Of a DNA stretch of 64,000 nucleotides, positions 6,833-58,047 are shown one piece after another. Source of the DNA: Phoronis australis (taxonomy: Eukaryota > Animalia > Phoronida). The translations under genes and the position numbers were made by a program. The DNA is taken from the NCBI GenBank assembly GCA_002633005.1, contig NMRA01001015.1, positions 1-64,000 on the forward strand. Reading direction: 5' to 3'. Every line of letters starts with the position of its first letter. The first letter of the stretch is position 1. The notes beneath the pieces are model-generated. The model was given only the letters and a program-made list of their open reading frames with translations, had not been told where the DNA came from and did not search any database.

Positions 6833-9800
6833 ATGAAGGTTTCCTTGATAGTAACGCTGTTGGTGGTGGCTCTTGCCCTGTCTACGACAGGTAAGGACGA
6901 GAGATGTCCACCATTTGCCTCGGCAATATAGAAGCCATTTTGCAGAAAAATCCAAACTAAAAGCAAAGCAGTACGTCACGAAATACAAGTGTGCAGATAT
7001 CATCTTTCCGAACTAAGCACCACTATCAATTCAGTTTCCGCACCATTCAAATTTTTTTACAAAAAGACTGCATCCCTTTCTCGATATACTTCATCAAGAT
7101 CCGAACTATAAACCAATAAATGGTGTTGCGAAGAAATTTCTTGCCTTCTCAACACAGGGTGCCGTTTTGGCCCTGTACAATGTTGGTTCTGATTTTCCAG
7201 TGTTCGGAAAGTAACATCCTCATGTTCTGCTACGTTCAAGATCTGGACACTTTTGACTCAGATTACTTAAAGCTGTCGTATTGGTCATTCAGATGAGAAG
7301 GGAGTCCTGGGTTTGCAAGGAACAGACAGTTTGTTTTTGTTGAGAACTTGCTTAAGGAGCCCGCCTGACCTCAAGCGCTAATGAACAGTATGTTCTTTCT
7401 AAGTTCTGATATACAGTGTATATAACTTGACCGAGGAACAACTTGAGACTATTTTCCTTTGGCTAACGGTAAGTGATTTATATAAATAAAAATTGTGGTT
7501 TTGTAAGCATAGATATAAACTCCACATCAAAGACTGCAAGCATCGTGCACCAGCACGTGCCATACTGGTATTTTTGTTGAACGATTGTTCCGAATGTAGC
7601 GCTACGTTACTCATGTGGCTTGCTTCTTCTAAAAGAGGCACTGTACATTTCTTGCTGAGTTTTCCATGCAAAACTTCACACAACACTAGATTTGCCGCCT
7701 TTCTTCCATTGTGACGAAACGTCTATCAACAAGTTGAAAAGCTACGAGTCGTTCCACTTTAAAAGCTTTACGTGACCAAGGGAACTTTATTTTGTCTCAT
7801 ATGTTTGACCCCTTCACTTCCACCGAAAAATTGCTCAAAACTCATAAAAATGTGGCAGAAACGCACTACTGACAATTTTCAGTCCAAACCCACCACTTTC
7901 GAATGCATATAAGAGCCAACACCAGATTCTGAAAGAGAATTTACCTAAAAGTTCCCGAAATGTGGTCCCAAAGTACTGCCATTCAATATTTTTTGCAAAT
8001 GAGGGTTGTTTGAGCGCCAATTAAAATCGCAGCAGGTTCCGTGGCCGAAGAGCGACAATGCTACAGGGACCGCCATTCCGAAAAAGTGTATCTATAGTCA
8101 AACTAGTTGACTTTTCTCATTCAAACCATGTTCAAATACAATTCGACTTAAGCCAGATACAAAGAACTTACTTGTAATGCATATCTAACTGCCGTGCGAA
8201 GCCTGACCTGTTCCACATAATTTATACAAAAAGTGCCAATTCAGTGGCCGCGGTTACAGTCTAACTGTACAATGCTACCAAAGGCATTATCAATGTCGAA
8301 TTCAAATGAATGCAGTCTCTCGTTGGCTCATTGTAAGCACTAAGACGTAACAGCATGCAAAATTCGGTAATATCGTTTTTTGAAATATAAGGAAGTGCGA
8401 TGGCGTACGAGAATTGTGGAATGTGCACTAGTGAAAAGTGAGCTGCCACGGCACGTACATGTATTAGTGGAGAGAGATGTTCTTGGTTTGCGTGAAGACT
8501 GCGCCTTTGTCCTATAGGAAGCTGTGAAACATATCAGATAACTGAGTTTGCTGAGTCGAAACCCAGATCCGTACGCGAATTCTATTCGTGCGTTGCCCGA
8601 CTGAAATGAACCCAAGCGCACTTTCGGCAAAACGTTACCGTAGCTACAGGCAGTTTTTTGACACAGTATCACTAGTACAGCGAGCGGTAATAATTCCCCA
8701 CAGCACGTTGTGTAATGTACATTTAGCTATACAGAACAAACCATGTATTTCAGATGCTGGATTGATCCGACTAGCCATACGGGGAATTAAGATTGGCGTG
8801 AAGGCAATTGTTGGCGCAGTAACTGGCGGTGGAACCGCTACAGTCGTTACAACGGCTGTCCTCACAGCTGCCGATCTGGCACTGAATTTAGGTAATATTT
8901 CATAGAAGAAATTTTCATAACTGATACGTTCGCATGGGCGGCGCAGCACTGAAAAAAGTGGGGGCTAAAGACACCCCAGCCCCCCCCCCTGTGGTGCACT
9001 GCCTATAGACCATGTGCGGCGTAGCACAGGAAAAAGTGGGTGGGCTATAGCACCCCAGCCCCCTTTGGTGCGCCACCCATGCTTAGTGACTTAATATCAT
9101 TGTAGAATTTCGATTTTCTGTCTTTTACTGGGAGGACGTTTTATGTCATTGATGAATTCAATCGAGTCTTTGAATAGCATGTAGTCGGTCAATCAATCCT
9201 GAACCTTGTTTGGGCGGATGTACTGGCTGCATAGGGTGTAGCACCTAAAGAGAACAGGGCGATCTACTTCAGACGTGCACGTGACCTACTATAAGCAGAC
9301 TACCAAAGATATTCAGTTGAATACCTGAAAGATCGCTTCACGGTTGTTTCAAGTTTCACGCATTTTCGCACTGAAAGGAACAGTAGGCAAGCTTAAGTGT
9401 TTGTGGTCGTTTTTATACTAACACAATAGAAAAGAATCCTTTGAGGGTACGTCTATCTATGATTTAACTTTGAAGTTCTATGTTTGGTTCTTCAATTAAG
9501 TCCCCCCATCCCGTCTTACCAACTGCGAAGCCAAAACTTCAGGAAAGTTTTCGCAGAAATTTCCGTTAGCATCATGACGTATTTGTCATAGATGTGGATG
9601 AACAGGTTCAGCTCAGCGAAGCAAATCCCTTTCAGGTAACGTGTTGTCCAAAGGATGCATGTACGAAAAAGAAATTTGTTCGCTGACACCAGAGATCGAG
9701 AACTTAGAGAAGCAGATGGTACCATTGTATAACCAACTGACGCTGCTGGATCAAAAGAACACCAAGACGTATAACGACCTGACGAAAAATCTGGAGAAAC

Positions 9801-11521
9801 ACAACGAGCTTGCGACAGAGGCCAACAAAATGCAAGCCCTCGTCGTGTCCATTATTCAGAAGTTGGGTGACCCCGCCAAATTAGATCGTCTCGGACAGGA
9901 GTTTGAAAGAAACACCAAAAATATGGTTAATACATTTAAAACCGAACTTCAGCAATACCAAAAGTCGATGGAAGGCAAAGCGGTGATGTCTGGAATTGCA
10001 GACTCTAGTCTTTTGCTCTACTTTGGTGCCAAACAGGCTTACACCAGCTTAAAGACGGCCGGAAAGATTTCATCTCCCAAAATGTTGAAAACCATTAAAT
10101 TTCCTAAGACAGGTCTGACGAGCTTGGCAAAACCAAAAGTTATCACGAAGATATCGTCTTCACTGACCACAGTTAAAAACTTCTTCAAGAAACCCAGCGT
10201 GGCCAAGTTCGCCAGCAAGGCCGCCAGTGGTGGAATGGTCCTCGGGAGTCTGGTCGGTTTGGGAGTCACGTTGGCTGTGGACATTTCTCAAGCAAAGAAG
10301 ATGAAAAATTCTCTGCGCAACACGCGCGACGAGATGAAACGTACCCTTAATGAGCTGAGGAATGAAATCAACCGCGAGAAGACAACTGAGCGAGACCTAG
10401 CCACTGCATTCCAAGACATCAGGAAGAAGCACATAGAGCTGGTTCAGATCATCAACCCTTCCTTGAAGAACAAACTCAGCACCAGCGCAGGATCTAACTC
10501 CGCTCAACTGTACAATGTAAGTACATGTTGAATCCAGTATTTTCTGTTGGGGCTCCAACTTAAATACGGCATGGCAAGCCTGAAATTCCCTGTTAGAAAG
10601 TCTTAAGAATTGGTTACCATATCTTCCTTGTCAACACTTCCGTCGGTGTTCGACACTTCTCCTCTAAATATTTAACATCGCTTGCCATGTCTACTTCATG
10701 TTACACACCTTATAGTCTCGCTATCATGAATATTCTCCACACATTTCTGTATTCGTTCATTATTTCGCAACAACGCGCTGACCTGCAACACTTCCGTTCT
10801 CAGTAGATGTTTTCAGCTGACTTTGCTTTGTGTATTTTATTTTAAACTAAGGGGACAGTGACTGAATTAAACGCCATGACTGAAGCAATTCTCAAATACT
10901 GTTGATGGGAGCGTTCACGTACTTCGCCGGCCCCTCCCCTTGCTGCGGGCCTGTGAGGGAATTGCAACAGTTTACCTTCAAACCTCACGTCGCATTGAAA
11001 ATCATTTAACCTGTTTCTGGGCGTACTACGTGGCACAAGCTTTTCAACGCCAATTCAAATGAAGCTACTCAATGAAGCGTTTCTAGTTTTGCAAGTTATT
11101 GCGTGTTCATCGAAGTTGCGGTATCAAAATCAGTGCCTTTTCATAAAACCTCTTTCCTTTGTGGCGTAGACGCTCGATCCAACTGTGTGCTTCTTCAATG
11201 GTCTATTTTTATAATCAAACGTGAAAGGTCGTTCAGTTTCCTTAAAAGAATGCTTTTGTCACTTTCTAGTACCAAGTCCAGGCTTTGGCTGTGTTCAGAA
11301 GACTCAACGCTGAGCTTACTAAGATGGAAATCAATTTCTCAGTCATCGAGGAGGTTACAGCCGGTGTAGAGATGGGAGATGATTTGAACCGCATTCGAAC
11401 CACTATCCAGCGAAAGGGACTGGGATCTTTCAACGAAGGGGAGATCTTGAACATCATTGCTGAACAGTTCCCTAGCAAAACTTCCTACAAGGGAAAAGAC
11501 CTTAAAAGATATAGAGGGTAA
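6833..11521 (+). CDS. Secreted cationic coiled-coil protein, tandem copy 2, 442 aa (exons 6833-6890, 8754-8891, 9636-10516, 11270-11521); possible alpha-helical pore-forming/cytolytic protein
   Basis: Signal peptide MKVSLIVTLLVVALALSTTDA, then GLIRLAIRGIKIGVKAIVGAV..., heptad-rich helices and hydrophobic segments AVMSGIADSSLLLYFGA and GGMVLGSLVGLGVTLAVDI. Spliced length 1329 nt in one frame. Gene structure is seen directly; function is inference. Confidence 0.85.
8933..9081. mobile_element. MITE (CATGGGCGGCGCA...TGCGCCACCCATG family) in intron of copy 2
   Basis: Terminal inverted repeats; absent from the equivalent intron of copy 1 (~2115); related to the element at 35920-36063. Confidence 0.7.
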
Positions 11522-14500
11522 ACGGAAAGTGGCAACGTTTTGAAATAATTTCTTGTAAATTTTAGCAAAACAATACTGATTTTATTGCAAATGAGTTATT
11601 AAAAATAAGAAATGTGCAAAATTCCAGACCACTGAATGCAGTATTTGAGGATACGCTATCCATCGTACCGGAATTTCGTACTTTCGACATGAAGTAGATT
11701 ATGAAAGAAGTCATGCGAATTGATTTTGTATCACTATCGAAGTACATGTAAGCATTAGAGTCGGAGTTTCTTGGATAAATCGAAGGTTTTCTCGTGCAAC
11801 AGGATTTGCGAAAAAACTTGAGTAACGACTATCCTAAGTCAGTTGTTTGTCCGATTTTATTTGCAATGCGAGTTGAACAGTTTTAACTTATCGATCATTT
11901 TTATAAACTTTTTTTTTGTATTTTGGTTTTTGCCTTCATAGCAAAACTGAAATTCCCCCGCTGTTGTTGGATGGTCCCACTTTTTTAATTTTTTTCCGCC
12001 ACACCATTTTTAAAATGTCCCGCTTTTTGACACACGGCCAAATTTACATATTATCATGTACTGATATATTTTCCCACGTGACACATCCATATGTTCCGGC
12101 TTCACTACAAAATAAAAACGAAACGTTTCATGGGTTTTTGCTACCGGTAATTTCCCATTCAACTATAAAAAAATAACAAAAACTGCTTGTGGGGCACCTT
12201 TGGGTGTTACATCTCCCGTTCGACAGAAAACACTGCCGGTACGTCTTTGTGTGTTGCCGCAAACATTTCACCTTAAGTTTTGGCTTATACACATTTTCCG
12301 CTTTTTGTCCTGAAGTCAATACAGCGCTTCCGTTTTCTCGTTATTGAATGTTGACCGTGACAACTATGCAACAGGTGTTCAAAATGATATTATCTTTTTT
12401 AGGAATATTGTTATTTTCCAGAGTCTACAATCGTAAAAATGTATTCCAATGTCTCTTGTTTGCGGTAACTTACATTACATGTATCAGGTTCACTAACTTT
12501 ACTTTCTGAAGAAAAGAGTTCATATGTAAACTTTTATGTAAAGTCCAACACTACTACCAATATGATGAGCTATCTACAGCACATTTCAAAGCTGCGTAAC
12601 AGATGTTTGTCCATTTTTATCCATATGAAAACCTTTATCAGCAAATTACAGATAGATAGGTGTAGTAGTTTATCGCATTTTTCGTAAAAGTCAAGAGCTG
12701 CATTCTGAATTTCTACTCAAGAATGTATTTGTATCAAAGGGCACCAATGGCCCAATTAATTATAATATATACAGATGTATAATTTTGGATGAATATCTGA
12801 CTAAATTATCCACGGCAAGTGTGATGGGTCCATATTCTAAAACCTTGGGACTTTATAGGGTAGAAATCTTTTTGAATCATTGAAACTATTTCCCCAATGG
12901 CATAAGTAGTCATTTATATATTTAATTTCTCTAGTTCATTTCCATTTTATGTTACTATTACACGCTGTTATTTTTTGCATTTTGATTACATAATTGTTTC
13001 TTAAACCAGTCAGGTATACGGAATGATAATAACTTATGAATTAAATTATTCACCTTGTGCTTCTAGTATAACCAACTAAAGAACTGACAATGTGTTTTCT
13101 AATGAGATGGCTCTTATGCAATTCGTTTGAAAAACGAAGGAGTTGGGAAAAGTTTTAATGACAGTAATTCCACAGCAAATGAACAAACAACTCTTACGCA
13201 TGCGTGGCGCAACCTCAGCGACCGCGAAATAGGAGTTGGCATTCCAGGCGCGCGTTCTGTAACGCTTAGAGGACCTAGCTAAAATCTATACGAAGTCACG
13301 TGCTACCATTCAAATTACACGACAATATCTCACGTAATCCCGCGAAGTCTTGGTTTTTAGCAAGGTCCTAGTGTTACTAAACGCCGGGGAGGCAGGGCTA
13401 GAATTCTATAGTCGCACCTACCGTATTAGCGTAATCAGGCGCAGTGTGCCTAATTGCGGGACCTCGCTTAGGCGCATGCCGGTCTATATGCGGAACAGTG
13501 TTGAATAGAACTTGCGTTGATCACGGTGCTCCGGATATAGGGTCACCTTCAATGTTTAAAAAATTCCTAGTTTGCACGTGGACACAAGCAGAAAGCGAGT
13601 CATAAATGGTAGATTTGGATTGGACGTGAGAGCCAGTGCCAGGGTAGTAAACAGACTCAGGTTGAACAATCACGACTAGATAGCAGTTAAAATGCTGTAG
13701 CAGTTGAGTATATGTGGAGTTGGGCCAAGTGTAGGCTAATATTACGTAAGTCGTTCCCGAAAATAAAGGTTGTAATGAGTTTCTTATTGTAAAGTTTTAG
13801 AATTTACAAAAGCGACGAATTTTATATTGTTTTGCATGCGCGCACCCAGGGCCGGGGAGTCGGGGGGCTCGAACGAGACCCCCATTTGGCGAAGTGGGCA
13901 AAAAGGTCCGCCTCTGAGAGACAAAAAGTCCGGGAAAATGGGACAAAAGTCTACTAAACAAGCGTAAACGTGCACTCCACAGTGGCGCTCCCGTTTTNAT
14001 TTCACCTTAAGTTTTGGCTTATACACATTTTCCGCTTTTTGTCCTGAAGTCAATACAGCGCTTCCGTTTTCTCGTTATTGAATGTTGACCGTGACAACTA
14101 TGCAACAGGTGTTCAAAATAATAATGTCTTTTTTAGGAATATTGTTATTTTCCAGAGTCTACAATCGTAAAAATGTATTCCAATGTCTCTTGTTAGCGGT
14201 AACTTACATTACATGTATCAGGTTCACTAACTTTACTTTCTGAAGAAAAGAGTTCATATGTAAACTTTTATGTCAAGTCCAACACTACTACCAATATGAT
14301 GAGCTATCTACAGTACATTTCAGAGCTGCGTAACAGATGTTTGTCCATTTTTATCCATATGAAAACCTTTATCAGCAAATTTCAGATAGATAGATGTTGT
14401 AGTTTATCGCATTTTTCGTAAATGTCAAGAGCTGCATTCTGAATTTCTACTCAAGAATGTATTTGTATCAAAGGGCACCAATGGCCCAATTAATTATAAT

Positions 14501-15337
14501 ATATACAGATGTATAATTTTGGATGAATGTCTGACTAAATTATCCACGGCAAGTGTGATGGGTCCATATTCTAAAACCTTGGGACTTTATAGGGTAGAAA
14601 TCTTTTTGAATCATTGAAACTATTTCCCCAATGGGTTAAGTAGTCATTTATATATTTAATTTCTCTAGTTCATTTCCTTTTTACGTTACTATTACACGCT
14701 GTTATTTTTCGCATTTTGATAACATAATTGTTTCTTAAACCAGTCAGGTATACGGAATGATAATAATTTATGAATTAAATTATTCACCTTGTGCTTCTAG
14801 TATAACCAACTAAAGAACTGGCAATGTGTTTTCTAATGAGATGGCTCTCATGCAATTCGTTTGAAAAACGAAGGAGTTGGGGAAAAGTTTTAATGACAGT
14901 AAATTCCACAGCAAATGAACAAACAACTCTTACGCATGCGTGGCGCAACCTCAGCGACCGCGAAATCGGAGTTGGCATTCCAGGCGCGCGTTCAGTAACG
15001 CTTACAGGACCTAACTAAAATCTATACGAAGTCACGTGTTACCATTCAAAATACACGGCTCAATATTTCACGTAATCCCGCGAAGTCTTGGTTTTTAGCA
15101 AGATCCTAGTATTAATAAACGCCGGGGAGGCAGGGCTAGAATTCTATAGTCGCACCTATCGTATAGCGTAATTATCACGACTCGATAGCACTTTAAATGC
15201 TGTAACAGTTGAGTATATGTGGAGCTGGGCCAAGTGTAGGCTAATATTACGCAAGTCGTTCCCGAAAATAAATGTTGTAATGAGTTTCTTATTGTAAAGT
15301 TTTAGAATTTACAAAAGCAACGAATTTTATTGTTTTG

Positions 15338-15624
15338 CATGCGCGCACCCCAAGGCCGGGGTGGCTCGGGGGGTTCGAACGAAACCCCCATTTGGCGAAG
15401 TGGGCAAAAAGGTCCGCCTCTGAGAGACAAAAAGTCCGGGAAAATGGGACAAAAGTCTACTAAACAAGCGTACCGCACTCCATAGTGGCGCTCCCGTTTT
15501 TTTTTTTTTTTTTTTTNTTTTTTTTCTTTATTTTTTTAGTCCGCCCGCTCTTCTGTTAGCAAAATGTCCAGAACGCCGGCAATTAGAGCCCCCCCCCCCA
15601 TACTGAAGGCTGGGTGCGCGCATG
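15338..15624. mobile_element. MITE with CATGCGCGCACCC termini
   Basis: TIR CATGCGCGCACCC/GGGTGCGCGCATG, flanked by TTTTG on both sides. Contains an n join at 15517. Partial relatives at ~13835, ~37760-37863 and ~42893-43043. Confidence 0.65.
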
Positions 15625-46224: not shown

Positions 46225-46453
46225 GTATTACTGACGAAACACATTGCATTTGATTCGAGATACGAATCATTCAGTCGAGCTCAAAATGATTTTCACACTT
46301 ACCGGGTTCAAAAAACCTGTAGAGTTTAGACACCGTAGTGCCAAACAACTTCTTCTTCCAAGTTCAACTGATATGCAATGAAATCAAATGGCGCGATAAG
46401 AGGATCACGTGATCAGTTGGGTTTTCCCGTGACCTCATACTGACAGCAAACAT

Positions 46454-47496
46454 TGTCGTGAACGTGTATTCTCTCGTTGTGTGGCGTCATGTGGTGTTGT
46501 CTTTGTTCGTCTCTGTGTGTGTGGTGTTGACATAGTGAGCCAGTGATAGGTCACGTGACTCTGGGCACGAGGGGGAATCGGGGAGTCTATGAAAGGGTGT
46601 GGACCTAGATAGACGATCTGGAGAGTGTAACTAGAAGCGCTCTTACAAGTGTGACACTGATGGCAAGCCCGGACAAGAAGTTGGGTAAGTTGGCTGTCTC
46701 TGAGGAATTATAGGCCGCGTTACTATAATTGGCGTAGTCGCCGGCAGGATTCAAGAGTGCCAACTTATAAACCGTGTGTGAGTTTTTCGCGCCGGTACCC
46801 TTCCGGGAGTGGGAGGGTAATTTGTATACCAAGTGCGTTTTCGCGTGTAGCTAGCCTATATATTACTGTCGTTACTGGTTATTTGTTGTAATCTTGTTGT
46901 GAGTAAATACTGCATGTCCATTTGATTCCGTGCGCGGTTCTCAGTTCCTATTTGATATTGGTCCTAGGAAATATTAAACTTGCGGGTTTGATATTAGTTG
47001 ATAATTATGGCTGCCGGGAAGGTGTCTATTAATTTCTGTCCCGCGGGAGAGTTGTTAGAAATTCCAGGGGTTTCCGAGGAAATTGCTAAAGATATTTTGA
47101 AGTTCCGGTCATCCACTCAAGTATTACCGGAAAATGTTAATTATATTAATTCAGGGTGGAAAGTCACTAAGGCGGTCCGTAATACTATTGATTTCAGCGC
47201 GAGTCCAGAGGACGAATTTCACAAAATTATCGAGGTATGTGAGGAATTCGAGAAACATGCTTTTAAGCCTGCAAAAACAAAGAGTGCAGGTCATACTCCC
47301 TCTTCGGCAAAGATGGCCGCAAAATTCCCGGGAAGCACAAATGCAAGTTTGGAGTGTAAACATGATATCAGATCACATGCTCCCAGTAAGCTAGTTTTTT
47401 CGGGAAAAAGGGGAACATGGGAGGACTTTCAATGGAAGTTCCAGAGTTTGGCACGTGATTATTTTTGGCCGACACATAAGTGTCGCACTGAGTTGG
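46454..47496 (+). mobile_element. Second, truncated copy of the Gypsy element: 5' LTR (46454-46727), PBS, leader and gag 5' part
   Basis: Same LTR/PBS/gag sequence as 48171-49210 but a different 5' flank (ACAT) and a diverged LTR. Intact gag ATG at 47007. Ends at the n join 47497. Confidence 0.9.
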
Positions 47497-47527
47497 NCTC
47501 AGATTTTGCATGCACCCCGTCCTACAT

Positions 47528-48016
47528 CAGGGCTTGGAATGACCAATGACAAAAAACACGGAAACCTTTACGGGCCCAAAACATGCGCGCTACCTAGCCT
47601 TGAAATGGTCAATGTGAACTTTACGACTAAAAAAAAGGAAAAAAAAAAGTTACCAGCAGCAGTAGCATGAGTCTGTGTCGTTTTAGCTCGTCCGTCCACT
47701 TCCAACCCACACATTTTTGGCTGCAAAGCCGTAGTGTTTGTCACCGCGGTTTACAATCACACGAGCACCATTGAAAATCCCACCACGCTATCCCAGATGC
47801 CCCGGCAATGTTGACAATTTACGTTCCTCCGAAACATAAAGAGCAACTGCTGCATTTCGAGGTGAACGTCGTCTGCAATGGCGCTGTAAGAAAGGAATTT
47901 GCCGCGGAAATTTTATATCAAATCCGATTTTTTTATACGGAAATATAATAAAATGCGCGGACAGAACATTTTTAAAAAGCGGAAATCCGCGTTTCCGCGG
48001 AAAATTCCTAGCCTTG
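47528..48016. mobile_element. Non-autonomous TIR element with 6-bp TSD
   Basis: CAGGGCTTGGAA...TTCCTAGCCTTG imperfect TIR flanked by CTACAT on both sides. Confidence 0.7.
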
Positions 48017-48170
48017 CTACATGTTGATACAGGTTTCACGGTGAGTTGATGAGCAGAACTACCCTGGCTGTGTGCAATTTCGGGGTATACGGAAGAAAAA
48101 CACACAGTGATACCTAGCTGTACTTTACTTTGACGATAGTCTTCATACAGCTAGCTGAACAGTGGCGGAT

Positions 48171-48446
48171 TGTCGTGAACGTGTATTCTCTCGTTGTGTG
48201 GCGTCATGTGGTGTTGTCTTTGTTTGTCTCTGTGTGTGTGGTGTTGACATAGTGAGCCAGTGATAGGTCACGTGACTCTGGGCACGAGGGGAAAAATCGG
48301 GGAGTCTATGAGAGGGTGTGGTGAAAGATAGACGCTCTGGATAGTGTAACTAGAGGCGCTCTCAAAAGTGTGACACTGATGGCAAGTCCGGACAAGAAGT
48401 TAGGTAAGTTGGCTGTATCTGATGAATTATAGACAGCGTTACTATA
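48171..48446 (+). repeat. 5' LTR
   Basis: TGTCGTGAAC...GTTACTATA; direct repeat of 57622-57897 (about 8 mismatches by eye). Confidence 0.95.
48379..48403 (+). CDS. Putative coding mini-exon in the LTR (MASPDKKL) spliced to ORF3
   Basis: ATG GCA AGT CCG GAC AAG AAG TTA G|GTAAGT: consensus donor, phase 1, in frame with the acceptor at 55251. Confidence 0.65.
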
Positions 48447-48448
48447 AT

Positions 48449-48468
48449 TGGCGTAGTCGGCAGGATTC
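48449..48468 (+). promoter_or_regulatory. Primer-binding site, tRNA-Ser
   Basis: TGGCGTAGTCGGCAGGATTC, 2 nt after the LTR, is complementary to the 3' end of eukaryotic tRNA-Ser (GAATCCTGCCGACTACGCCA). Confidence 0.88.
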
Positions 48469-48722
48469 AAGAGCACCAACTTATAAACCGTGTGTGAGTT
48501 TTTCGCGCCGGTACCCTCCCGGGAGTGGGAGGGTAATTTGTATACCAAGTGCGTTTTCTCGTGTAGCCAGCCTATATATTACTGTCGTTACTGGTTATTT
48601 GTTGTAATCTTGTAGTGAGTAAATACTGCATGTCCATTTGATTCCGTGCGCGGTTCTCAGTTCCTATTTGATATTGGTCCTAGGAAATATTAAACTTGCG
48701 GGTTTGATATTAGTTGACAATT

Positions 48723-50136
48723 ATGGCTGCCGGAAAAGTGTCTATTAATTTGTCCCGCGGGAGAGTTGTTAGAAATTCCAGGGGTTTCCGAGGAAATTGC
48801 TAAAGATATTTTGAAGTTCCGGTCATCCACTCAAGTATTACCGGAAAATGTTAATTATATTAATTCAGGGTGGAAAGTCACTAAGGCGGTCCGTAATACT
48901 ATTGATTTCAGCGCGAGTCCAGAGGACGAATTTCACAAAATTATCGAGGTATGTGAGGAATTCGAGAAACATGCTTTTAAGCCTGCAAAAACAAAGAGTG
49001 CAGGTCATACTCCCTCTTCGGCAAAGATGGCCGCAAAATTCCCGGGAAGCACAAATGCAAGTTTGGAGTGTAAACATGATATCAGATCACATGCTCCCAG
49101 TAAGCTAGTTTTTTCGGGAAAAAGGGGAACATGGGAGGACTTTCAATGGAAGTTCCAGAGTTTGGCACGTGATTACTTTTGGCCGACACATAAGTGTCGC
49201 ACTGAGTTGGGGTTGTGCCTTGAGGGGGATGCAGCTCGGTGGTTTTCTAATTATATAAAAGAATATCCGGGGGCAGAGTTTGATGACATCATCGAGATAA
49301 TGTCTAATAGATTTGGATCCGAGGTGGAGAGTATTGAGGTACATCAGCTTCGTTTCCATTCAGCATTTCAAGAGAGGGATGAGTCTCTTGAACAGTGGGC
49401 AGATCGCCTTACTAGTTTGTTCCTCAAGGCTTTTCCGGACCCCAGGCCTTCGGATAAATCACAGTCAGTACTGAGGTTTTGTCTGGGAATGCGCGATAAA
49501 GATGTGGCCCAATTCACAATTAATAATAAACCAGCGACTGTTGTTGACGCATTGACATCGACTCGTTGGTTTTCGACCACTAAAAACCTAATGCATGCAT
49601 CGCCCAGGTCAGTGACATTTCGTCGCGAATCTTATGCCGACGATGTATTCGAGAATGTCGACGTGAGACAGGTTAATCGTAAGCCTAGTCTTAAATTTAC
49701 CCCGCGAGATACTATTGAGTCGCGGTTGGACGCCCTTGAGGGGAAATTCGCGTCCCTTGAATCATCTAGTCTTGAAATGCAATCGGATATTGTTTCCCTG
49801 AAATCAGACAATTCTCAAATTCACAAGAAAATAGACCGCATGAAGACTGAAATGAATAGCAATTTCGGTGACATAACAAATAACTTCAATAAACTATTTT
49901 CAATACTACAAACTCAGTCGCCGAGACGACCGCAGGAGTCGAGGGAACAGCGGTTATCGCCGAATTCTCCGAGGTCTGACATTCGTCAGCGAAATTCACC
50001 AGGTTCTTCACCTAAATGTCCATATACACCGAGGTGTTTTAAGTGTAATCAACTGGGGCATTATCAGAGTAATTGTCCATCGACGTCGGCACGTAGGGCT
50101 AGTGTGGAAAGCAATGAGGGTGATTTAAATGCCTAA
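48723..50136 (+). CDS. gag: Gag with N-terminal HhH motif, capsid-like region, coiled coil and CCHC zinc knuckle (2-nt deletion near 48750 relative to the upstream copy)
   Basis: LEGDAARWF, QERDESLEQWADRL, CFKCNQLGHYQSNC. ATG context matches the intact copy at 47007. Confidence 0.9.
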
Positions 50137-50185
50137 GGACTGGGCGATCGGGTCTTACCCCAGTCCGTAGTAAGTGCCAAGACCC
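50124..50185 (+). promoter_or_regulatory. -1 programmed ribosomal frameshift signal (slippery site + H-type pseudoknot)
   Basis: In-phase T TTA AAT at 50124-50130 and a 6-nt spacer. Stem 1 GGACTGGG(50137-44)/CCCAGTCC(50159-66); stem 2 GGGTCTT(50150-56)/AAGACCC(50179-85). The -1 frame is open into the protease ORF. Confidence 0.8.
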
Positions 50186-53100
50186 TCCTGATGTTGCGAA
50201 ATTAGTTGGCCTCGTGGGGTGCATCAAGAAATTTGTTAAAAAGCTTAGTCGGGACTCCAATTCATCGGAAACGGATTGTTCCTTTGAGAGAAAAACTTCT
50301 GCCGATTATCATAAATCTGTTTCAGAGTTAAGTAGTCCTACAAATTCTAACGTAACGGAGAGTGTATCTTCAGACAAGATGTGTGGGGAAACGGTTCCGG
50401 TTATTGTTGAGGAGGTGACGAACAGTTATGAGATTGTGATAGATTCATTACACATGAATTCACAAAGTAACTCTCCATCTGTGTCGGGAGAGCTGGTTCC
50501 ATCCGGCTCTGTTCCGGTCAAGATGTCAGTCGAGGCTGATAGTTTCTTCGATTCCCTAGAGACTGTTGGAGTAAAGAAGACTGCAACGGGTAATATGTAT
50601 TATATACCGATTAGAATTAATGGCACTGTGGTTGATGCCATTATTGATTGCGGAGCTGACAGCACCATAATCTCGCACCGGTTGTACAATTTGTTAGACA
50701 ACGTTGCTTTTTCACATAACATTAATGTACAAACGGCTGGAGAAGATATGGCTATGCTAGGTTTTCGAACGCAACCAGTAACTCTCACGTTTCAGCATCA
50801 GACCTGTGATGTTTCATTAGTCGTGGCTAATATTAACGATGAGTGTTTATTAGGTCTGGATGTTATGAAACGGCTAAATGCAGTTATTAATATGAAAAAA
50901 GATTGCATCACGTTGGATAACAAAACTTCAGAAATGAAGTATGGTTTCCCTGCGAAGCTATTACCTACTGTAGTACTGGCTAGGTCTGTTAGTATACCTC
51001 CAAATACTGTGAAACGGGTTAAGTGTGTAAAAAACCCAAAATTTCAGTCAACAGTTTTGGTTGAGGCCGATTTGATGAATCTGGATCCGCGATTATCAGT
51101 ACCTCGCGCTTTGTATGATTTTGAGGATGAGCCAGCTTTGATGATTTTCAACACTTCGGAGCATCAAGTTAGGCTGGTGGCTGGGTCATCACTGGGTTCA
51201 GTACAAAATGTGGATGAATGGACTGAGGTTCATTTGAATTCCGTTACTCCCTTGGATGAAGATGATGTTTCGGCTTGAAAAGTTGTTGATCAGTCAGATG
51301 TCAATAAGTATCAGATTAGCTTACCATCCAAACTTCAGGGCCTTTTTGACAAATCTAAAGTTTCACTTTCGGATGACGAGTCGTCAAAATTACATACATC
51401 GATTACTTTCTGATTATACCGATGTATTTGCAGCCGATGATATGGATTTGGGCAATTTTACAGCCGTAGAGCATGTAATTGATACGGGAGATGCTCAACC
51501 AATAAAAATGGCTATGCGGCGTACTCCGAGTTGTTTCATTTCGGAGGAGGAGGGTCATCTAGACAAAATGCTCAAGGCTGGCGTGATTACTCCGTCTACG
51601 AGTGAGTGGGCTGCGGCTCCGGTTTTAATTAGAAAGAAAACTGACGGTTCAGTCCGGTATTGCATCGACTACAGGAAGCTAAATCGGGTAACCAAAAAGG
51701 ACTCCTGGCCTTTACCATTGATAGACGAGTGCATTGATTTACTTGCGGGTAATGTGTGGTTTAGCAAATTAGATGCTAATTCGGCGTACTGGCAAATCAA
51801 AATACGCGAAGAAGACCGTAAGAAAACGGCTTTCATAACTAAATATGGCCTTTTCGACTTCAAGTCAATGCCTTTTGGGCTCTGTGGGGCTCCCTCAACC
51901 TTTTCACGGGCAATGAGTTTAGTTCTGCGGGGGCTAAACTGGCACACAGTTCTTGCTTTTCTCGACGACATTTTGGTCTTGGGTTCTAGTTTTGACGTGC
52001 ATTTAAACAACCTGCGGGAGGTTTTTGATCGTTTTAGGAAATATCAAATGAGATTGAAACCCAAGAAATGTTCATTGTTTCAAAAACGCGTTGATTTCCT
52101 AGGACGATGGGTGGGCCCTGAGGGGTTAGAAATGGGTCAAGATAATATTGACAAGGTAAAAACCTGGCCTGTTCCAAGAAGTAAAAAACAGTGTCAGAGT
52201 TTTCTTGGTTTCGTAAATTATCATCGTCTTTTTATCAGGGATTTTGCTCGCATTGCGATGCCACTTTACGAAGTCACTGGGTCCTCTCCCTTTGCGTGGG
52301 TGGAGAAGCAGCAATTAGCTTTTGAAGAGCTTAAGGTGGCTTTAACATCGCCACCCGTGCTGTCGTTACCCAATAATTATGATGAATTTATCCTCGATTG
52401 TGACGCTTCTGATCTTGCGATTGGTGCTTGTTTGTCACAAGTTCAGAATGGCGAGGAAAAGGTTATCTCGTATTCGAGTTTTGCGTTGGTGGATGAGCAA
52501 AAACGGTATTGCATGACTAGGAAGGAATTATTGGCTGTGGTCCGTTTTACTCATTAATATCGACATTATTTGCTGGGTCGGAATTTCCGCGTGCGGACGG
52601 ATCATAACAGCTTAACATGGTTGTTGAATTTTAAATCTTCAAGTGGTCAGATAGCGCGTTGGATTCTGCAGCTGCAACAATTTCCGGGTATGAAGATAGA
52701 GTATCGGCCGGGTATAAAGCATATTAATGCAGATGCACTTTCCCGTATTTCTGTAGATATTTGAAGCAACTATAAACTGGGAGTTTCTCCAGAACTGCTT
52801 CCCTGCGGGGGTTGTGCAAAATGTCAAAAAGCTCATAATGACTGGTATAGTTTTTCACAAAAAGTTGATGATTCAACATCTCTTGGTAGCGTGGTGGTCA
52901 CAAAAGTAGATAAATGTATTGGTACAGGGAGACAGGTAATTACGGCTTCTGTTGGAAGTCAAGAGTCGGATTTGTCTCGGTATATACCTGATGATCTAGC
53001 AGAGCAGGAATTTGGATTGGCTGTGGTTAATCCAAATCTTTCAAATTCGAGTGATAGTGTTTTTGTGGAATCGGAATTTTGCGTTGTCAACAACAACTCG

Positions 53101-55207
53101 ACCAGCTCAAACTCCTGCGGGTATCTTAATGAAGCTGAGTTGCCAATTAAACAAAAAGCTGATGTGGATTTGACTTTTGTTTTCAACTGGTTAAAGGAAC
53201 AGNATAGTGTTTTTGTGGAATCGGAATTTTGCGTTGTCAACAACAACTCGACCAGCTCAAACTCCTGCGGGTATCTTAATGAAGCTGAGTTGCCAACTAA
53301 ACAAAAAAAAGCTGATGTGGATTTGACTTCTGTTTTCAACTAGTTAAAGGAACAGGTAGTTCCTACAGAGCACGAATTGTTCCTATCTAGTCCGTCAGCA
53401 AAGTTTTACTGGATAAACAAAGATCGGTTTTATATTCAAGGTGATGTATTGTTCTGAAAATCATACCATCGGCGGCTCATCAGGGTATTTTCCGGACTAA
53501 GTCAAAAATAAGGTTAAAATATTTCTGGTATGGTTTGACGAAAGATGTCAAACAATTCATAGGTTCCTGTGGGGCCTGCAATCAGAACAAGCAGGGCAGT
53601 AGACGTGGTCGATTTCCGATGATTCGTTATCATGCTGGTGCGCCGATGGGACGGGTTCATGTATTTTCTGGGGCCATTACCTGTGACAAACCGCGGTAAT
53701 GAACATGTTTTAATGATCGTTGATCAGTTCACCAAATGGGTCGAGTGCATTCCATTACCTTCCCAAACGGCTGAGGTCACGGCCCATGCGGCGGTCAACG
53801 AGTTCTTCACACGGTTCGGATATCCGTTTCATATTTTTTCAGATCAGGGAAGGAATTTCGATAGCAAACTTTTTAAGTCACTGTGCGACCTCCTACACAT
53901 AAATAAGTCAAGAACAACTCCATACGAATGGACAGGTAGAGCGATTTAATCGCACGCTCATGGACACGGTGAGATCTCACGTGAGGGATTATCAAGACGA
54001 CTGGGATATGTTTATTCCGCAAATTGCTGGGGCGATTCGCTCATCAGTCAACCGACATACTGGNGCCTGCAATCAGAACAAGCAGGGCAGTAGACGTGGT
54101 CGATTTCCGATGATTCGTTATCATGCTGGTGCGCCGATGGAACGGGTTCATGTGGATTTTCTGGGGCTATTACCTGTGACAAACCGCGGTAATGAACATG
54201 TTTTAATGATCGTTGATCAGTTCACCAAATGGGTCGAGTGCATTCCGTTACCTTCCCAAACGGCCGAGGTCACGGCCCATGCGGCGGTCAACGAGTTCTT
54301 CACACGGTTCGGATATCCGTTTCATATTTTTTCAGATCAGGGAAGGAATTTCGACAGCAAACTTTTTAAGTCACTGTGCGACCTCCTGCACATAAATAAG
54401 TCAAGAACAACTCCATACCGTCCGTCTGCGAATGGACAGGTAGAGCGATTTAATCACACGCTCATGGACGCGGTGAGATGTTACGTGAGTGATTATCAGG
54501 ACGACTGGGATATGTTTATTCCGCAAATTGCTGGGGCGATTCGCTCATCAGTCAACCGACATACTGGTTTCTCTCCAAATATGGTGATGTTGGGACGAGA
54601 AACAAATCAGCCGATAGATCTTATATTTCCGGTGGTCACGTCAGTTAATAATCAACCATATGGTGATTATGTTGGGAGACTTCAAGGGGCAATAAGCAAG
54701 GCTCATGAAACGGCGCGTCAATTTCTTCAAACTAGTCAATCTTTGATGAAACGGGACTATGATCTTTCAGTGTTTAAGCGCGTGTTTCATCTGGGTGATC
54801 TTGTGTATATCTTTGACTCGGCAACCGTGAAAGGAAAATGTAAAAAATTATCTCCTCCGTGGAAGGGGCCGGGCATTATTACGGAAGTCTTAACTCCAGC
54901 GTTGTACCGGGTAAGAGTTAAGAATTCAGTTTCGGTAGTTCATCATGACAGAATAAAATTATGTACAACGCAATATACAGAATTGCCTGATTGGTTAAAA
55001 AGAGTCATTTCTGCTGGAAATGTCATCAACACCAATACCGGGAATAGGGATCCGGAACTTTTTTGCATTTGTCGCAAGCCCGATCACGGAGGGCTCATGA
55101 TTCAGTGCGACTCTTGTGATGACTGGCTTCATGGGGAATGTGTTGATATTACCGCTACTGATGCAAGGGAAATTGACACTTATTGGTGTCCTCGGTGTAA
55201 GCCATAA
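50130..55207 (+). pseudogene. pol: Pol polyprotein (protease, RT, RNase H, integrase, PHD), disrupted in this assembly
   Basis: PR AIIDCGADSTII; RT YCIDYRKLN, MPFGL, AFLDDILV; RH DCDASD, TRKELLAV, RTDHNSL; IN VHVDFLG, FSDQGRNF, GQVERFN, WKGP. Frameshifts near 51270-51390 and 52760, stop at 52555, duplicated blocks at n 53203 and n 54064. Confidence 0.93.
53960..55207 (+). CDS. Integrase core + C-terminal PHD finger
   Basis: DDE motifs as above; C4HC3 pattern LFCICRKPDHGGLMIQCDSCDDWLHGECVDIT...YWCPRC at ~55058-55200. Confidence 0.9.
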   Translation: MDTVRSHVRDYQDDWDMFIPQIAGAIRSSVNRHTXACNQNKQGSRRGRFPMIRYHAGAPMERVHVDFLGLLPVTNRGNEHVLMIVDQFTKWVECIPLPSQTAEVTAHAAVNEFFTRFGYPFHIFSDQGRNFDSKLFKSLCDLLHINKSRTTPYRPSANGQVERFNHTLMDAVRCYVSDYQDDWDMFIPQIAGAIRSSVNRHTGFSPNMVMLGRETNQPIDLIFPVVTSVNNQPYGDYVGRLQGAISKAHETARQFLQTSQSLMKRDYDLSVFKRVFHLGDLVYIFDSATVKGKCKKLSPPWKGPGIITEVLTPALYRVRVKNSVSVVHHDRIKLCTTQYTELPDWLKRVISAGNVINTNTGNRDPELFCICRKPDHGGLMIQCDSCDDWLHGECVDITATDAREIDTYWCPRCKP

Positions 55208-55251
55208 CATCATTATGATGTAATAATTACATAACCATGTTTTTGTTGTAG

Positions 55252-56087
55252 ATGTCCAGTTCGCCTGTTTAGATGTTCGTTTGCGAACGAACCCAGACCT
55301 TCCAATAGCGACCTTCAACGAAGGTGAGTCCGGGGCTGTTGAGGTAGTCCCTATGGATGCAGAGTCAGTAGTGGGTAAGTCAACTGAATGCCAAGGTGAA
55401 GTGGATTGTACAGTTGCGGCTGTAGACGAAACACAGTCATCGATTAAAACGCCAGTTAGACCTGCGGGAATCTCGGGGTCATCTAGTCAGTGTTCGGTAA
55501 GTTCTGCGGGTCTTCCATCTCCCTCCTTTTCGTGCCCGTTATGTCCTTTTACGGGGTCGGAGGCCGTGTTTCGGGCACACGCCCTATTACATCTTCCGAA
55601 AATATTCAATATATCATCTATTCACATGCTCGCGTTTCCGGGGTTACAGCGTCGTCGCGCTTGGGCGATTCTTCGCCTGTTTTCTTACATAGAGGGCAGG
55701 GAATTGGTGTCATACAGCGATTTGATGGATATGGGGGGGTTGATCGTGCGCAGTTTGCCATGTATACCATCTGTGTTGTTGGTTGACGAGGTGTCGATGT
55801 TCTTAATATGCCGTGTGATGGGATGGCCGATACCATCTCGTTTTATCGCACCGGATGGTCGCTTAGAGAATCCAGCATGTGTGTTCCTCTTGTATATTAT
55901 TTTGGGGATGATGGCACGCGTGTCGGAGGCCCTTCGCTCTGAGTGGATCCGTTGGTGTGATGAAGAGTCCGCATCTACCGAAATGCAGGAAGTAACATTT
56001 ATTCCTTTAGCGGCGCCACTGCATCAGACATCTACTGGGGTAGACGTTGCGTCGACTCCTACGAACGGACCGGTGAATGCACCATAA
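55252..56087 (+). CDS. ORF3 N-terminal part: Ser-rich linker, C2H2-like finger, helical domain of unknown function
   Basis: CPLC-x11-H-x3-H (CPLCPFTGSEAVFRAHALLH). Same frame as the TatD ORF, separated only by one TAA at 56085-56087. Polypyrimidine acceptor TTTTTGTTGTAG ends at 55251. Confidence 0.7.
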
Positions 56088-56099
56088 GCAACGGGGCCT

Positions 56100-57087
56100 G
56101 TGACTACATCGTTCACCACTTTTGCTCAGGTAGTTGCAGAGGGTTCGTCTAGGCCTACTGCGATTGGAACGACTGTTGCGGCCGAGTCTATTTCAACTCT
56201 GCGCAAAGTAAAAGCGGATCCTCAGGCTTTGGACTCGCATTTCCACATTGATAGGTTATCTGTGGCCCATCGTGAGAAAACGGGCGTACGGACAGTGGAC
56301 AGATGGCTGTCAGTACCAGAACTCCTGGCGGCAGATATGTGCAGGCAACCGACGGTGCCAGTGACCCTCTGTGGGGGGATCATGGTTTTTTGCGATGCAC
56401 ATGACTTTCGCGTTGACCTGGGTGCCTATTTGAAACAGCTTCCTACGGGATGGAAGGCAGTCGTAGGCATCCATCCTAAACAGCTCTCCAAATTGGATTT
56501 CCGTGCGTGGGAAGTTATGTTGGGGTTGCTGTCAGAACCAAAGGTAGCAGGGCTTGGGGAAGTCGGATTGGAACAAGGTAGGGACGAGGTATGGCAGGCG
56601 CGTGCTTTAGAAGATTTGATAATTCATTTTTGTCGGCTGGAAAAGAAAAAAACTGAATATCGTAGGAAGGTGCTAGTGATTCACCTGCGAGGGGCCAAGC
56701 ATGATGTTCATTATGATTGGGGTTTTGCTACACTCCGTGAGATTTTGCGGCGTCATGCTCCGCGGAGTATTCGTATGCACTTATACACCTTTGTTGGAAA
56801 TACAAATGTCGTGCGCGACTTCTGTGAGGAATTTCCTTCGTGTTATTTTGGCTTTTCAGGTTTGGTATGCAGGTACAACCGCTGGCAGGTTGCAGCGTTA
56901 CGCGCGGTTCCTCTGCAGCGGTTGTTGTTGGAAACCGATTCCCCTCACCTTCCGGTAAATACTAAACCTAATTACCCTCAGTTTATAGGGGAGGTCGCGG
57001 AAGTTGTGGCAAAGCTAAGGGGGGGTGTCCACTAAGGTGGTTCTGGACGAGAGCGTTCGTAACGGACGAAGGTTATACCGATTATAG
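56100..57087 (+). CDS. tatD: TatD-family metal-dependent DNase domain (ORF3 C-terminal part)
   Basis: DSHFH, VGIHP, GLGEVGLE, VLVIHLR, YFGFSG, LLLETDSPHL in TatD order. Removing one G from the run at ~57019-57025 restores the typical ending RGVSTKVVLDESVRNGRRLYRL* (stop 57085-57087). Confidence 0.9.
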
Positions 57088-57608
57088 AGGGGCGTGGGGG
57101 TGGTATATGAGATATTATAGAAATAATAGTTTTTTTCCCTTTTCTATATATTTTTTTTGTATATGCCTCTTTATTTTACATTTAGGGGCATTTCCGTCTC
57201 GTCTGTTCGGACATCTTGTGGATTATATTAGTTGTTTCTTTTTTGTTTTTTGTTTTTTTTTATGTATTAAGTTCTTACTTGAGAGTAAGGGGATGGGTTT
57301 TTGGTGTTTTTTTTTGGTTTTTCCTTTTCGTTGAGTGCCCTTTTCTTTTTAGAGTCAATAGGTTTTGTTTTTAGTCATTGTTCTTCAGGCCACTATGTTT
57401 AGGATAATTTTCTTTTGGGAGGGACGGTTTAGTTGTGAAGTGCTACTAACGTCACATCAAATGTTTTTTTTTTTTCATTAAGTTATTTTATTTTTTCTTT
57501 CTTTCTGCGAAACTAATTGATGTTTCTTTTTGTTACATTTGGTACGACTGTTGGTCTTCTAACATTTGTTTGGGGATATTAGGAATTAAAGTTAGGCATG
57601 TTCTTTTT

Positions 57609-57621
57609 AGGAAGGGGGGAG
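57609..57621 (+). promoter_or_regulatory. Polypurine tract
   Basis: AGGAAGGGGGGAG immediately before the 3' LTR. Confidence 0.9.
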
Positions 57622-57897
57622 TGTCGTGAACGAGTATTCTCTCGTTGTGTGGCGTCATGTGGTGTTGTCTTTGTTCGTCTCTGTGTGTGTGGTGTTGACA
57701 TAGTGAGCCAGTGATAGGTCACGTGACTCTGGGCACGAGGGGAAAAATCGGGGAGTCTATGAGAAGGTGTGGTGAAAGATAGACGCTCTGGAGAGTGAAA
57801 CTAGAGGCGCTCTCAAAAGTGTGACACTGATGGCAAGTCCGGACAAGAAGTTAGGTAAGTTGGCTGTATCTGATGAATTATAGGCCACGTTACTATA
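57622..57897 (+). repeat. 3' LTR
   Basis: Direct repeat of 48171-48446, followed by the GGAT TSD. Confidence 0.95.
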
Positions 57898-58047
57898 GGA
57901 TTTAGGCATGGGGGCCATGCCCCCTCCACTAAAATTCTCCCAGATTCCATTTGGCAGTTAGGTAGTGCGAATGTCAGACAGGCAAAATCCTGGCTAATAA
58001 AAACTCTGCCCTGGCACCCCAAACTCAAAATCCTGGATCAACCCCTG
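57898..58047. mobile_element. 3' remainder of the CAGTGGCGGAT MITE interrupted by the Gypsy element (5' part 48160-48170)
   Basis: Aligns with 46074-46224. Confidence 0.85.

Follow-up and report, generated by a model that had tools for sequence, protein, structure and literature searches.

Splicing from within the LTR of a Phoronis australis Ty3/Gypsy element to a TatD third gene

In a 64,000-nucleotide stretch of the Phoronis australis genome (contig NMRA01001015.1, positions 1 to 64,000; hereafter the window), an LTR retrotransposon carries a third open reading frame, ORF3, downstream of pol. The locus raises the question of how this gene is expressed and where its protein begins. A first-pass annotation had proposed that a coding mini-exon inside the LTR is spliced to ORF3 and supplies the start codon that ORF3 lacks.

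A Ty3/Gypsy element and its TatD protein

The element at 48171-57897 is a Ty3/Gypsy LTR retrotransposon, with two LTRs, a target-site duplication, primer-binding-site-like (PBS-like) and polypurine tract (PPT) motifs, and the gene order gag, then protease, RT, RNase H and integrase; the integrase with its PHD finger is followed on the 3' side by the TatD ORF3. The features of this full copy, and of a second copy nearby, are as follows.

46454..47496, + strand: second copy, truncated and ending at an N, comprising an LTR variant (46454-46727; its mini-exon 46660-46684) and the gag start
48167-70 and 57898-901: target-site duplication GGAT, 4 nt, bracketing both LTRs
48171..48446, + strand: 5' LTR, 276 nt, 8 mismatches to the 3' LTR
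48379..48403, + strand: putative coding part of the LTR mini-exon, ATG at 48379-81, 8 codons plus 1 base, 25 nt, phase 1
48404..48409, + strand: splice donor GTAAGT, score 7.5, on the 5' side of the PBS-like site and 43 nt short of the LTR end (48446)
48449..48466, + strand: PBS-like sequence, falling in the intron
48723..50136, + strand: gag, with an N-terminal helix-hairpin-helix (HhH) motif and a CCHC knuckle
50124..55207, + strand: pol (protease, RT, RNase H, integrase, C-terminal PHD finger at about 55064-55198)
55240..55251, + strand: splice acceptor (T-rich tract, TAG), score 4.4, 44 nt past the pol stop (55207)
55252..57087, + strand: ORF3 exon, with a family motif (55266-55290), a Zn-finger-like, helical middle, and TatD at about 56232-57023
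55324..55329, + strand: second donor GTGAGT, score 8.0; 55252-55323 is a 72-nt phase-symmetric exon
57600..57621, + strand: T-rich tract with an acceptor-like AG (57609-10), and the PPT
57622..57897, + strand: 3' LTR, repeating the mini-exon without change (57830-57854) and the donor

The PBS-like site is presumably complementary to tRNA Ser; no tRNA gene was found within the 64-kb window. The full copy is decayed and unable to make full ORF3: gag has a frame break near 48750 (its HhH motif was scored on the second window copy and a relative), pol is disrupted by stops, frame breaks and two N-gap duplications, and ORF3 is broken by a stop at 56085-87 and a frame break near 57020.

ORF3 matches the TatD family (PF01026) at 92.7 bits against a curated cut-off of 27, and YcfH/TatD structures at E 1e-8, while no envelope family was matched. 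Six positions, which we take from the TatD motifs to be the metal site, are invariant in all 15 single-frame relatives among 28 TatD loci, window included; the window copy itself retains five of the six, the altered one lying near 56784. Together with a dN/dS of about 0.24 in the sole unsaturated pair, this supports selection on the TatD ORF3 across the clade. The first-pass annotation had called TatD a regulated, selected gene, and the second half of that description is borne out by these figures; the evidence on regulation comes from three very-low-depth samples. The TatD fold is that of a metal-dependent nuclease, and here it perhaps trims or clears nucleic acids in the element's cycle.

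Relatives were gathered by integrase, using the best 80 of 100 matches, as an element-specific TatD alignment contained no stretch conserved enough for scanning. A search of genome contigs with the TatD alignment gave one relevant locus among 80, the others being ordinary prokaryotic TatD to judge from their titles and partial matches, and viral contigs gave none. ORF3s of such elements are annotated elsewhere as host or even bacterial TatD genes, which their Gypsy origin explains.

A splice from the LTR to ORF3

Four public runs (X1-X4) from two studies were searched, X1 being only by our guess RNA. A junction joining 48403 to 55252 occurs in two of the four, one from each study, in the form of two X4 reads and a single X1 contig, and the joint coincides exactly with the GT of the LTR donor and the AG of the acceptor past pol. 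The X1 contig has a word depth of 22.7, and its 19 overhanging letters equal window 46665-46683; the RNA reads thus resemble the LTR variant of the second copy (46454-46727). The junction is not among the joints listed for X2 and X3. In X4, sense coverage begins at the acceptor: of the 21 bins across gag-pol (48466 to 55101), 20 have zero depth, and depth exceeds zero in all six bins from 55102 to 56997. Nine X4 reads pass the donor unspliced and may derive from 3' or solo LTRs. The two X4 junction reads are possibly one molecule.

The splice linking the LTR donor with the acceptor past pol is real, and the RNA evidence supports its producing a subgenomic RNA without PBS, gag and pol. The mini-exon, its donor and an acceptor that joins in frame are all present as first proposed, and the junction for which RNA-seq was to be searched has been found; the dedicated spliced mRNA then put forward is upheld by that junction, by X4 sense coverage over ORF3 only, and by signals conserved in the clade. 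An alternative acceptor AG at 55272, which had also been put forward as in frame, can be discarded as a main site, scoring -0.1 against 4.4 for 55251 with no junction listed. No match to a branch-point motif was found before 55251.

The clade-wide signals are as follows. Of 44 de-duplicated relatives, 19 have an acceptor no more than 30 nt ahead of the ORF3 ATG; among the control ATGs the figures are 35 of 1973 (coding) and 7 of 197 (3' region). Likewise, 7 of 13 LTRs with the window included (6 of 12 without it) have a donor scoring at least 5 within their final 100 nt, against 0 of 13 in antisense and 0.3 expected from shuffles. Both signals keep their positions in relatives that share about 40-70% integrase identity, and the predicted design, an LTR donor with an acceptor before ORF3, is by these signals clade-wide. 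The conserved donor and acceptor show that this gene has a message of its own across the clade, much as env has in retroviruses, and the nuclease is hence likely to be important for the element's cycle.

The start of the TatD protein

We suggest that the splice gives a short, TatD-only message and that, in this lineage, the LTR ATG probably starts the protein. Transcription would begin upstream of 48379, and the 5' LTR donor would be spliced to the acceptor just past pol, yielding a message with the TatD third gene alone; because the donor precedes the primer-binding site, this message would not prime reverse transcription. Eight LTR codons would then replace the start and an N-terminal domain of about 110 residues, which in most relatives follow the acceptor. 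That domain is missing from ORF3 here: the six frames of 46300-58000 gave no match to profile positions 1-90 (best other match iE 0.3), and the N-terminal half of ORF3 as sole query found no longer homolog, which is weak evidence. The family motif is still recognisable (profile positions 110-145, iE 0.0046, 55266-55421) and begins upstream of the first in-frame ATG at 55353, so that it could be translated only from an upstream start.

It is also conceivable, if rather unlikely, that the splice is real and the LTR exon non-coding as in most relatives, with ORF3 starting at 55353, past the six-codon frame at 55252, or truncated and declining, and with the in-frame LTR ATG a product of chance. 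Most relatives do have a predicted non-coding LTR exon and an ORF3 with its own ATG; 13 of 19 have no ATG open to the donor, and in the other six it is in frame in three, so that chance yields a coding LTR exon fairly often. Nor does phase discriminate strongly, as a match has a one-in-three chance and, of the nine AGs in 55208-55360, six, including that ending at 55251, fit the phase of the frame 55227-56087. The ATG at 55353 has a context similar to that of the LTR ATG, which has a pyrimidine at -3 and is preceded in the same LTR by two short upstream ATG frames, and its existence means that the first-pass annotation overstated the case in saying that ORF3 lacks a start. In X1-X4 no read is shown that carries both the LTR ATG and the junction; the X1 contig includes the last 20 nt of the mini-exon and stops short of the ATG, beginning 5 nt past its A.

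Conservation of the exon, tested on the three LTRs in the window and a small number of run contigs, can be read both ways. Relative to the 5' LTR, the second LTR shows two changes among the 25 exon bases, each of them synonymous, with the donor retained, and the 3' LTR has no change in the exon. This much of the earlier argument from synonymous differences stands, whereas the weight placed on it was excessive, two synonymous changes out of two having a chance of 0.04-0.15. The codon-level conservation that was to be looked for did not emerge, as the exon diverges no less than the rest of the LTR (2/25 versus 12/208 and 4/43). ATG, exon length and donor are nonetheless kept in both window variants and, among the differences listed, in an X1 LTR contig that has diverged further; the second codon is altered in the more diverged contigs of that run. 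A non-coding exon fits poorly with the retention of ATG and phase in the LTR variants seen; it would also leave the family motif at 55266-55290 untranslated yet recognisable, and would present the ribosome first with an out-of-frame ATG directly at the acceptor (55252; six codons, then a stop), unlike in most relatives.

Molecules beginning at 55254 make up 10 of 18 in X2 and 5 of 10 in X3, starts that the LTR-splice model does not account for. Together with the small number of junction reads, they could be taken to mean that the junction is rare cryptic splicing or a processed or deleted DNA copy, the RNA over ORF3 arising chiefly at an internal start close to the acceptor or at host promoters. 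We regard this as improbable, since the joint coincides to the base with GT and AG, relatives at about 40-70% integrase identity have both signals in corresponding positions, and the molecules starting at 55254 exit the element at 55324 and hence are not ORF3 message. From that second donor, 63 reads lead into a foreign exon, and 2 reads from X3 into the PPT region. Splicing of the LTR donor into host genes, foreseen in the first-pass annotation, was not seen in these data: the three raw-read runs, of which roughly a fifth each was covered, list no loose ends at this donor (three reads being needed for listing).

U1 binding suppresses premature polyadenylation in the 5' LTR of HIV-1 and foamy viruses, and the position of the donor near the 3' end of LTRs in the clade would suit a donor kept mainly for that purpose, with ORF3 splicing a side use (both roles can coexist), but this is most improbable given that a matching acceptor is conserved directly before the ORF3 start, that the junction is used, and that no AATAAA-type signal was found in the window element's LTR.

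Relation to known systems and significance

In foamy viruses and deltaretroviruses the donor lies in the R region, upstream of the PBS, and the LTR exon is non-coding; in ASLV, Env takes six Gag codons from a short coding first exon that is that of gag. A close parallel is the env-F subgenomic mRNA of Drosophila errantiviruses of the ZAM and Beagle subclades, as described in parts of PMC12992720, in that a single donor upstream of pol is spliced to an acceptor after it. Exon 1 of those elements, a coding exon that supplies the start codon, is located on the 3' side of the LTR, at 494-531 in ZAM (LTR 1-473), 454-495 in gypsy5 (1-430), 433-461 in tirant (1-417) and 646-689 in HMS-Beagle2 (1-332), and none of the 20 'exon1' entries listed lies inside an LTR (PMC12992720). 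The window exon, in contrast, lies inside the LTR and before the PBS, and its product has a TatD fold and is not a fusion glycoprotein. Splicing here works like env splicing, and ORF3 is not env; the element shows a variant of env-type splicing, set apart by the TatD ORF3 and the LTR-internal exon.

Other systems share single features, as far as the passages of each source that bear on them show. Mammalian MaLR/ERVL LTRs, such as mouse MT, have a donor near the 3' end, like the LTR here, and sometimes a functional AUG, forming a portable first exon, and are known for splicing into host exons (PMC5538554); the donor here serves the element's own third gene and was not seen joined to host exons. 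The bdelloid elements Juno and Vesta carry non-env ORF3 enzymes (DEDDy exonuclease, GDSL esterase) in the env slot, typically from spliced messages, and belong to a different lineage from the window element with its TatD, PHD-bearing integrase and HhH gag; TatD is absent from the main text on them and no splice sites are mapped there (PMC5408684). Cer1 of C. elegans, a CERV, likewise makes a spliced non-Gag/Pol product, but from five exons shared with gag (PMC10309623), and Springer has a 5' donor that also forms host chimeras, located 43 nt downstream of the LTR and giving a chimeric exon without AUG (PMC13097621). The main text of PMC13524379 makes no mention of splicing, PHD or TatD, and sections of the MDG1 sORF2 preprint (10.1101/2025.03.14.642691) report no splicing. 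No description of TatD nuclease cargo in LTR retrotransposons was found in the literature searched; for PHD-bearing Gypsy elements, titles and the opening lines of abstracts pointed to no paper on an HhH-gag/TatD clade, in a literature that took in neither Repbase-type reports nor the majority of subscription journals.

More tentatively, and with appreciable doubt, we raise the possibility of an undescribed-looking Gypsy clade (HhH-gag, integrase-PHD, TatD ORF3) in which the LTR-donor splice removes the primer site, the start codon has here moved into the LTR, every LTR, solo ones included, is a ready coding first exon, and both donors already feed host transcripts.

What had been a guess from sequence is now a gene model, for an element-borne nuclease gene, that can be put to the test. 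Should the LTR ATG prove to be used, it would show how the recruitment of LTR sequence lets a cargo gene shed both its start codon and its N-terminal domain; the LTR would then be under protein-coding constraint, and each copy would be a potential first exon for host genes.

Element architecture and predicted splice signals

The features needed here are as follows.

48171-57897, plus strand: Ty3/Gypsy LTR retrotransposon (main copy), with LTRs, a target-site duplication, a PBS-like site and a polypurine tract (PPT)
46454-47496, plus strand: second, truncated copy, the source of the other LTR, which has 18 mismatches and 2 gap columns in 276
55324, plus strand: second donor, score 8.0, closing a 72-nt phase-symmetric exon

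The main copy is bounded by LTRs of 276 nt each with 8 mismatches between them, is flanked by the target-site duplication GGAT, and has its PBS-like site at 48449 and its PPT just before the 3' LTR. Pfam matches cover gag (zinc knuckle), protease, RT, RNase H and integrase, which carries a PHD finger at its C-terminus; in a third frame, after pol, TatD_DNase is matched at 92.7 bits versus a cut-off of 27. The gag N-terminus matches a helix-hairpin-helix motif (PF12836, cut-off 27; 26.1 bits at window 47007-47210 and 30.4 at 5649-6098 of L096, a related locus in metagenome contigs); judged by these matches, such a gag is a clade feature beside the integrase PHD finger. The main copy is decayed: its gag and pol carry stops and frame breaks, with two duplications at N gaps, and its ORF3, broken by an internal stop at 56085-87 and a frame break near 57020, also departs at one of six metal-site positions that are invariant otherwise. 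The truncated copy stops at an N; a stretch of its gag matches the main copy at 100% identity, whereas its LTR is ~7% different. The pol duplications likewise flank Ns (53203, 54064). Joins made in assembly or between haplotypes may account for all of these. Window 1-15400 contains further long direct repeats, spaced ~6.5-6.9 kb and 1.7 kb apart.

The first-pass annotation proposed that a coding mini-exon in the LTR is spliced to ORF3. The signals themselves are borne out by the sequence: an ATG at 48379 opens 25 coding nucleotides followed by GTAAGT from 48404, and an acceptor whose AG ends at 55251, 44 nt 3' of the pol stop, matches this donor in phase. As the donor precedes the PBS and sits 43 nt short of the LTR end, the 6,848-nt intron contains the PBS, gag and pol. 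The splice reading is upheld by the junction in sequencing runs and by clade-wide signals, but three arguments offered for it are weaker than claimed. The LTR was said to supply a start that ORF3 lacks, and the frames do join, but ORF3 contains an ATG of its own, in frame, at 55353, 34 codons past the acceptor. The phases are compatible, but so are those of 6/9 AGs near the acceptor. Both mini-exon differences between the LTR variants are synonymous (2/2), as had been put forward for codon conservation, but the chance of this is 0.04-0.15, depending on the model, and the mini-exon has diverged as fast (2/25) as the remaining LTR (12/208 and 4/43).

The junction in sequencing runs

Four public runs under one species label and from two studies, X1 (contigs) and X2 to X4 (raw reads, about a fifth of each examined), were searched for the predicted junction. 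It was found in X4 as 2 reads, possibly one molecule and too few for the main table of joints, and in X1, whose RNA status is a guess, as one contig of 236 nt and word depth 22.7 that aligns to 55251-55465. The 19 overhanging letters of this contig, compared by eye, equal window 46665-46683 in the second LTR variant; it carries just the last 20 nt of the mini-exon, beginning 5 nt past the A of the ATG. No LTR-to-acceptor joint is among those listed for X2 and X3. With the X4 sense strand taken as first mate on minus, in agreement with the GT orientation of joints, X4 sense depth is zero in 20/21 bins over 48466-55101, the remaining bin containing a 33-nt cross-match flanked on either side by loose ends, and 0.3-2.4 in 6/6 bins over 55102-56997. 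In finer bins it stays at zero across 54800-55215 and begins in the acceptor bin.

Reads covering 48402 (14, 7 and 9 in X2, X3 and X4) and 48417 (12, 7 and 9) are similar in number, so most LTR reads pass the donor unspliced; loose ends at the end of the LTR show many of them continuing into flanking DNA, as expected of 3' or solo LTRs. LTR reads of X2 (48171-48446) are largely antisense and continue into flanking DNA, as from LTRs within host transcripts. Run reads mismatch the main copy at many sites and are closer to the second LTR variant, so expression comes from other loci.

Solo LTRs had also been expected to scatter exons able to splice into host genes. Among the joints listed, none that is chimeric leaves from the LTR donor; they leave instead from the internal donor, with 40 reads in X2 and 23 in X3 departing exactly at 55324 for one foreign sequence. 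Molecules beginning at 55254 number 10/18 (X2) and 5/10 (X3). The element piece 55252-55323 is likely exonised in a host transcript, the chimeric splicing from 55324 probably occurring at another locus. Two X3 reads join 55323 to 57611, an acceptor-like site at the PPT (2,287 nt), a joint that would skip the TatD domain.

Splice signals across the clade

With the TatD part as query, 16 longer proteins were found; two have oyster and abalone as their named sources. From an integrase scan of metagenome contigs the best 80 of 100 relatives were taken; with the window and locus L001 included, the pol stop could be located in 64 loci (60 clusters), and a TatD match lies downstream of pol in 28. Fifty-seven loci have at least 300 nt past the pol stop, and 48 remained once 9 lacking a long ATG frame were left out. 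The first long-frame ATG is preceded within 30 nt by an acceptor (score at least 4) in 21/48, or, without near-duplicates and the window, in 19/44 versus 35/1973 coding-region ATGs (p = 4e-20) and 7/197 3'-region ATGs (p = 6e-11), with similar results at thresholds 3 and 5; these p-values are indicative, given approximate scoring tables and the relatedness of the loci. For the donor, 20 LTR starts were picked by eye and the end was fixed by the PBS in 13. A donor (score at least 5) occurs in the last 100 nt of the LTR in 7/13 (6/12 without the window), versus 0/13 antisense and an expectation of 0.3 under doublet shuffling. We consider it highly probable that the splice from LTR donor to post-pol acceptor takes place. 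Acceptor-like and donor-like sites were also seen by eye between the TatD stop and PPT of five loci (L087, L093, L096, L101, L103), where 3' UTR introns are possible.

A probable coding LTR exon and its cargo

Thirteen of 19 relatives lack an LTR ATG that is open to the donor; the first exon predicted for these would therefore be non-coding, and their ORF3 starts at an ATG of its own directly after the acceptor; an LTR ATG is open in 6/19, three of them in frame. L091, L113 and L126 have an open frame without early ATG past the best-scoring acceptor, which may not be the site used. In most relatives (group of 37 sequences) ORF3 opens with a conserved ~110-residue N-terminal domain, whose profile the window ORF3 fits from position 110 on only (55266-55421, iE 0.0046); no match to the missing domain turned up in the rest of 46300-58000. 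At the acceptor itself, an out-of-frame ATG gives a frame of just six codons. As the retained family motif precedes the first in-frame ATG, its translation requires the LTR ATG. We suggest that the lineage of the window element would have lost the 5' part of ORF3 and that the LTR exon would have taken over its start; given the splice, the LTR ATG is likely used.

The claim that the TatD gene is selected holds for the relatives: the six metal-site positions are invariant in 15/15 with a single frame, and the only unsaturated ORF3 pair, one member of which has a stop, gives dN 0.20 and dS 0.83. By these sequence measures, ORF3 of the clade is evolving under selection. In locus L122, whose integrase is without a PHD match, ORF3 (3514-4683) has the family's Zn-finger-like and helical middle part after an N-terminal motif that we take to be SGNH/GDSL-like, a composition suggesting that cargo domains are swapped. 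Animal-type retrotransposon DNA also occurs in records labelled as the bacterium Sedimenticola (all of L001; protein record P0004), which is why ORF3 is catalogued as a bacterial TatD hydrolase.

Titles and abstract openings in the literature yielded no clade-wide LTR-internal donor combined with TatD cargo and a coding LTR exon for a lost N-terminus. Mammalian MaLR LTRs, in passages of PMC5538554, have a donor near the 3' end and sometimes a functional AUG, and bdelloid elements, in passages of PMC5408684, likewise have enzyme ORF3s said to be typically spliced. The individual parts are therefore known from these systems; what would set the phoronid element and its relatives apart is how they are put together.
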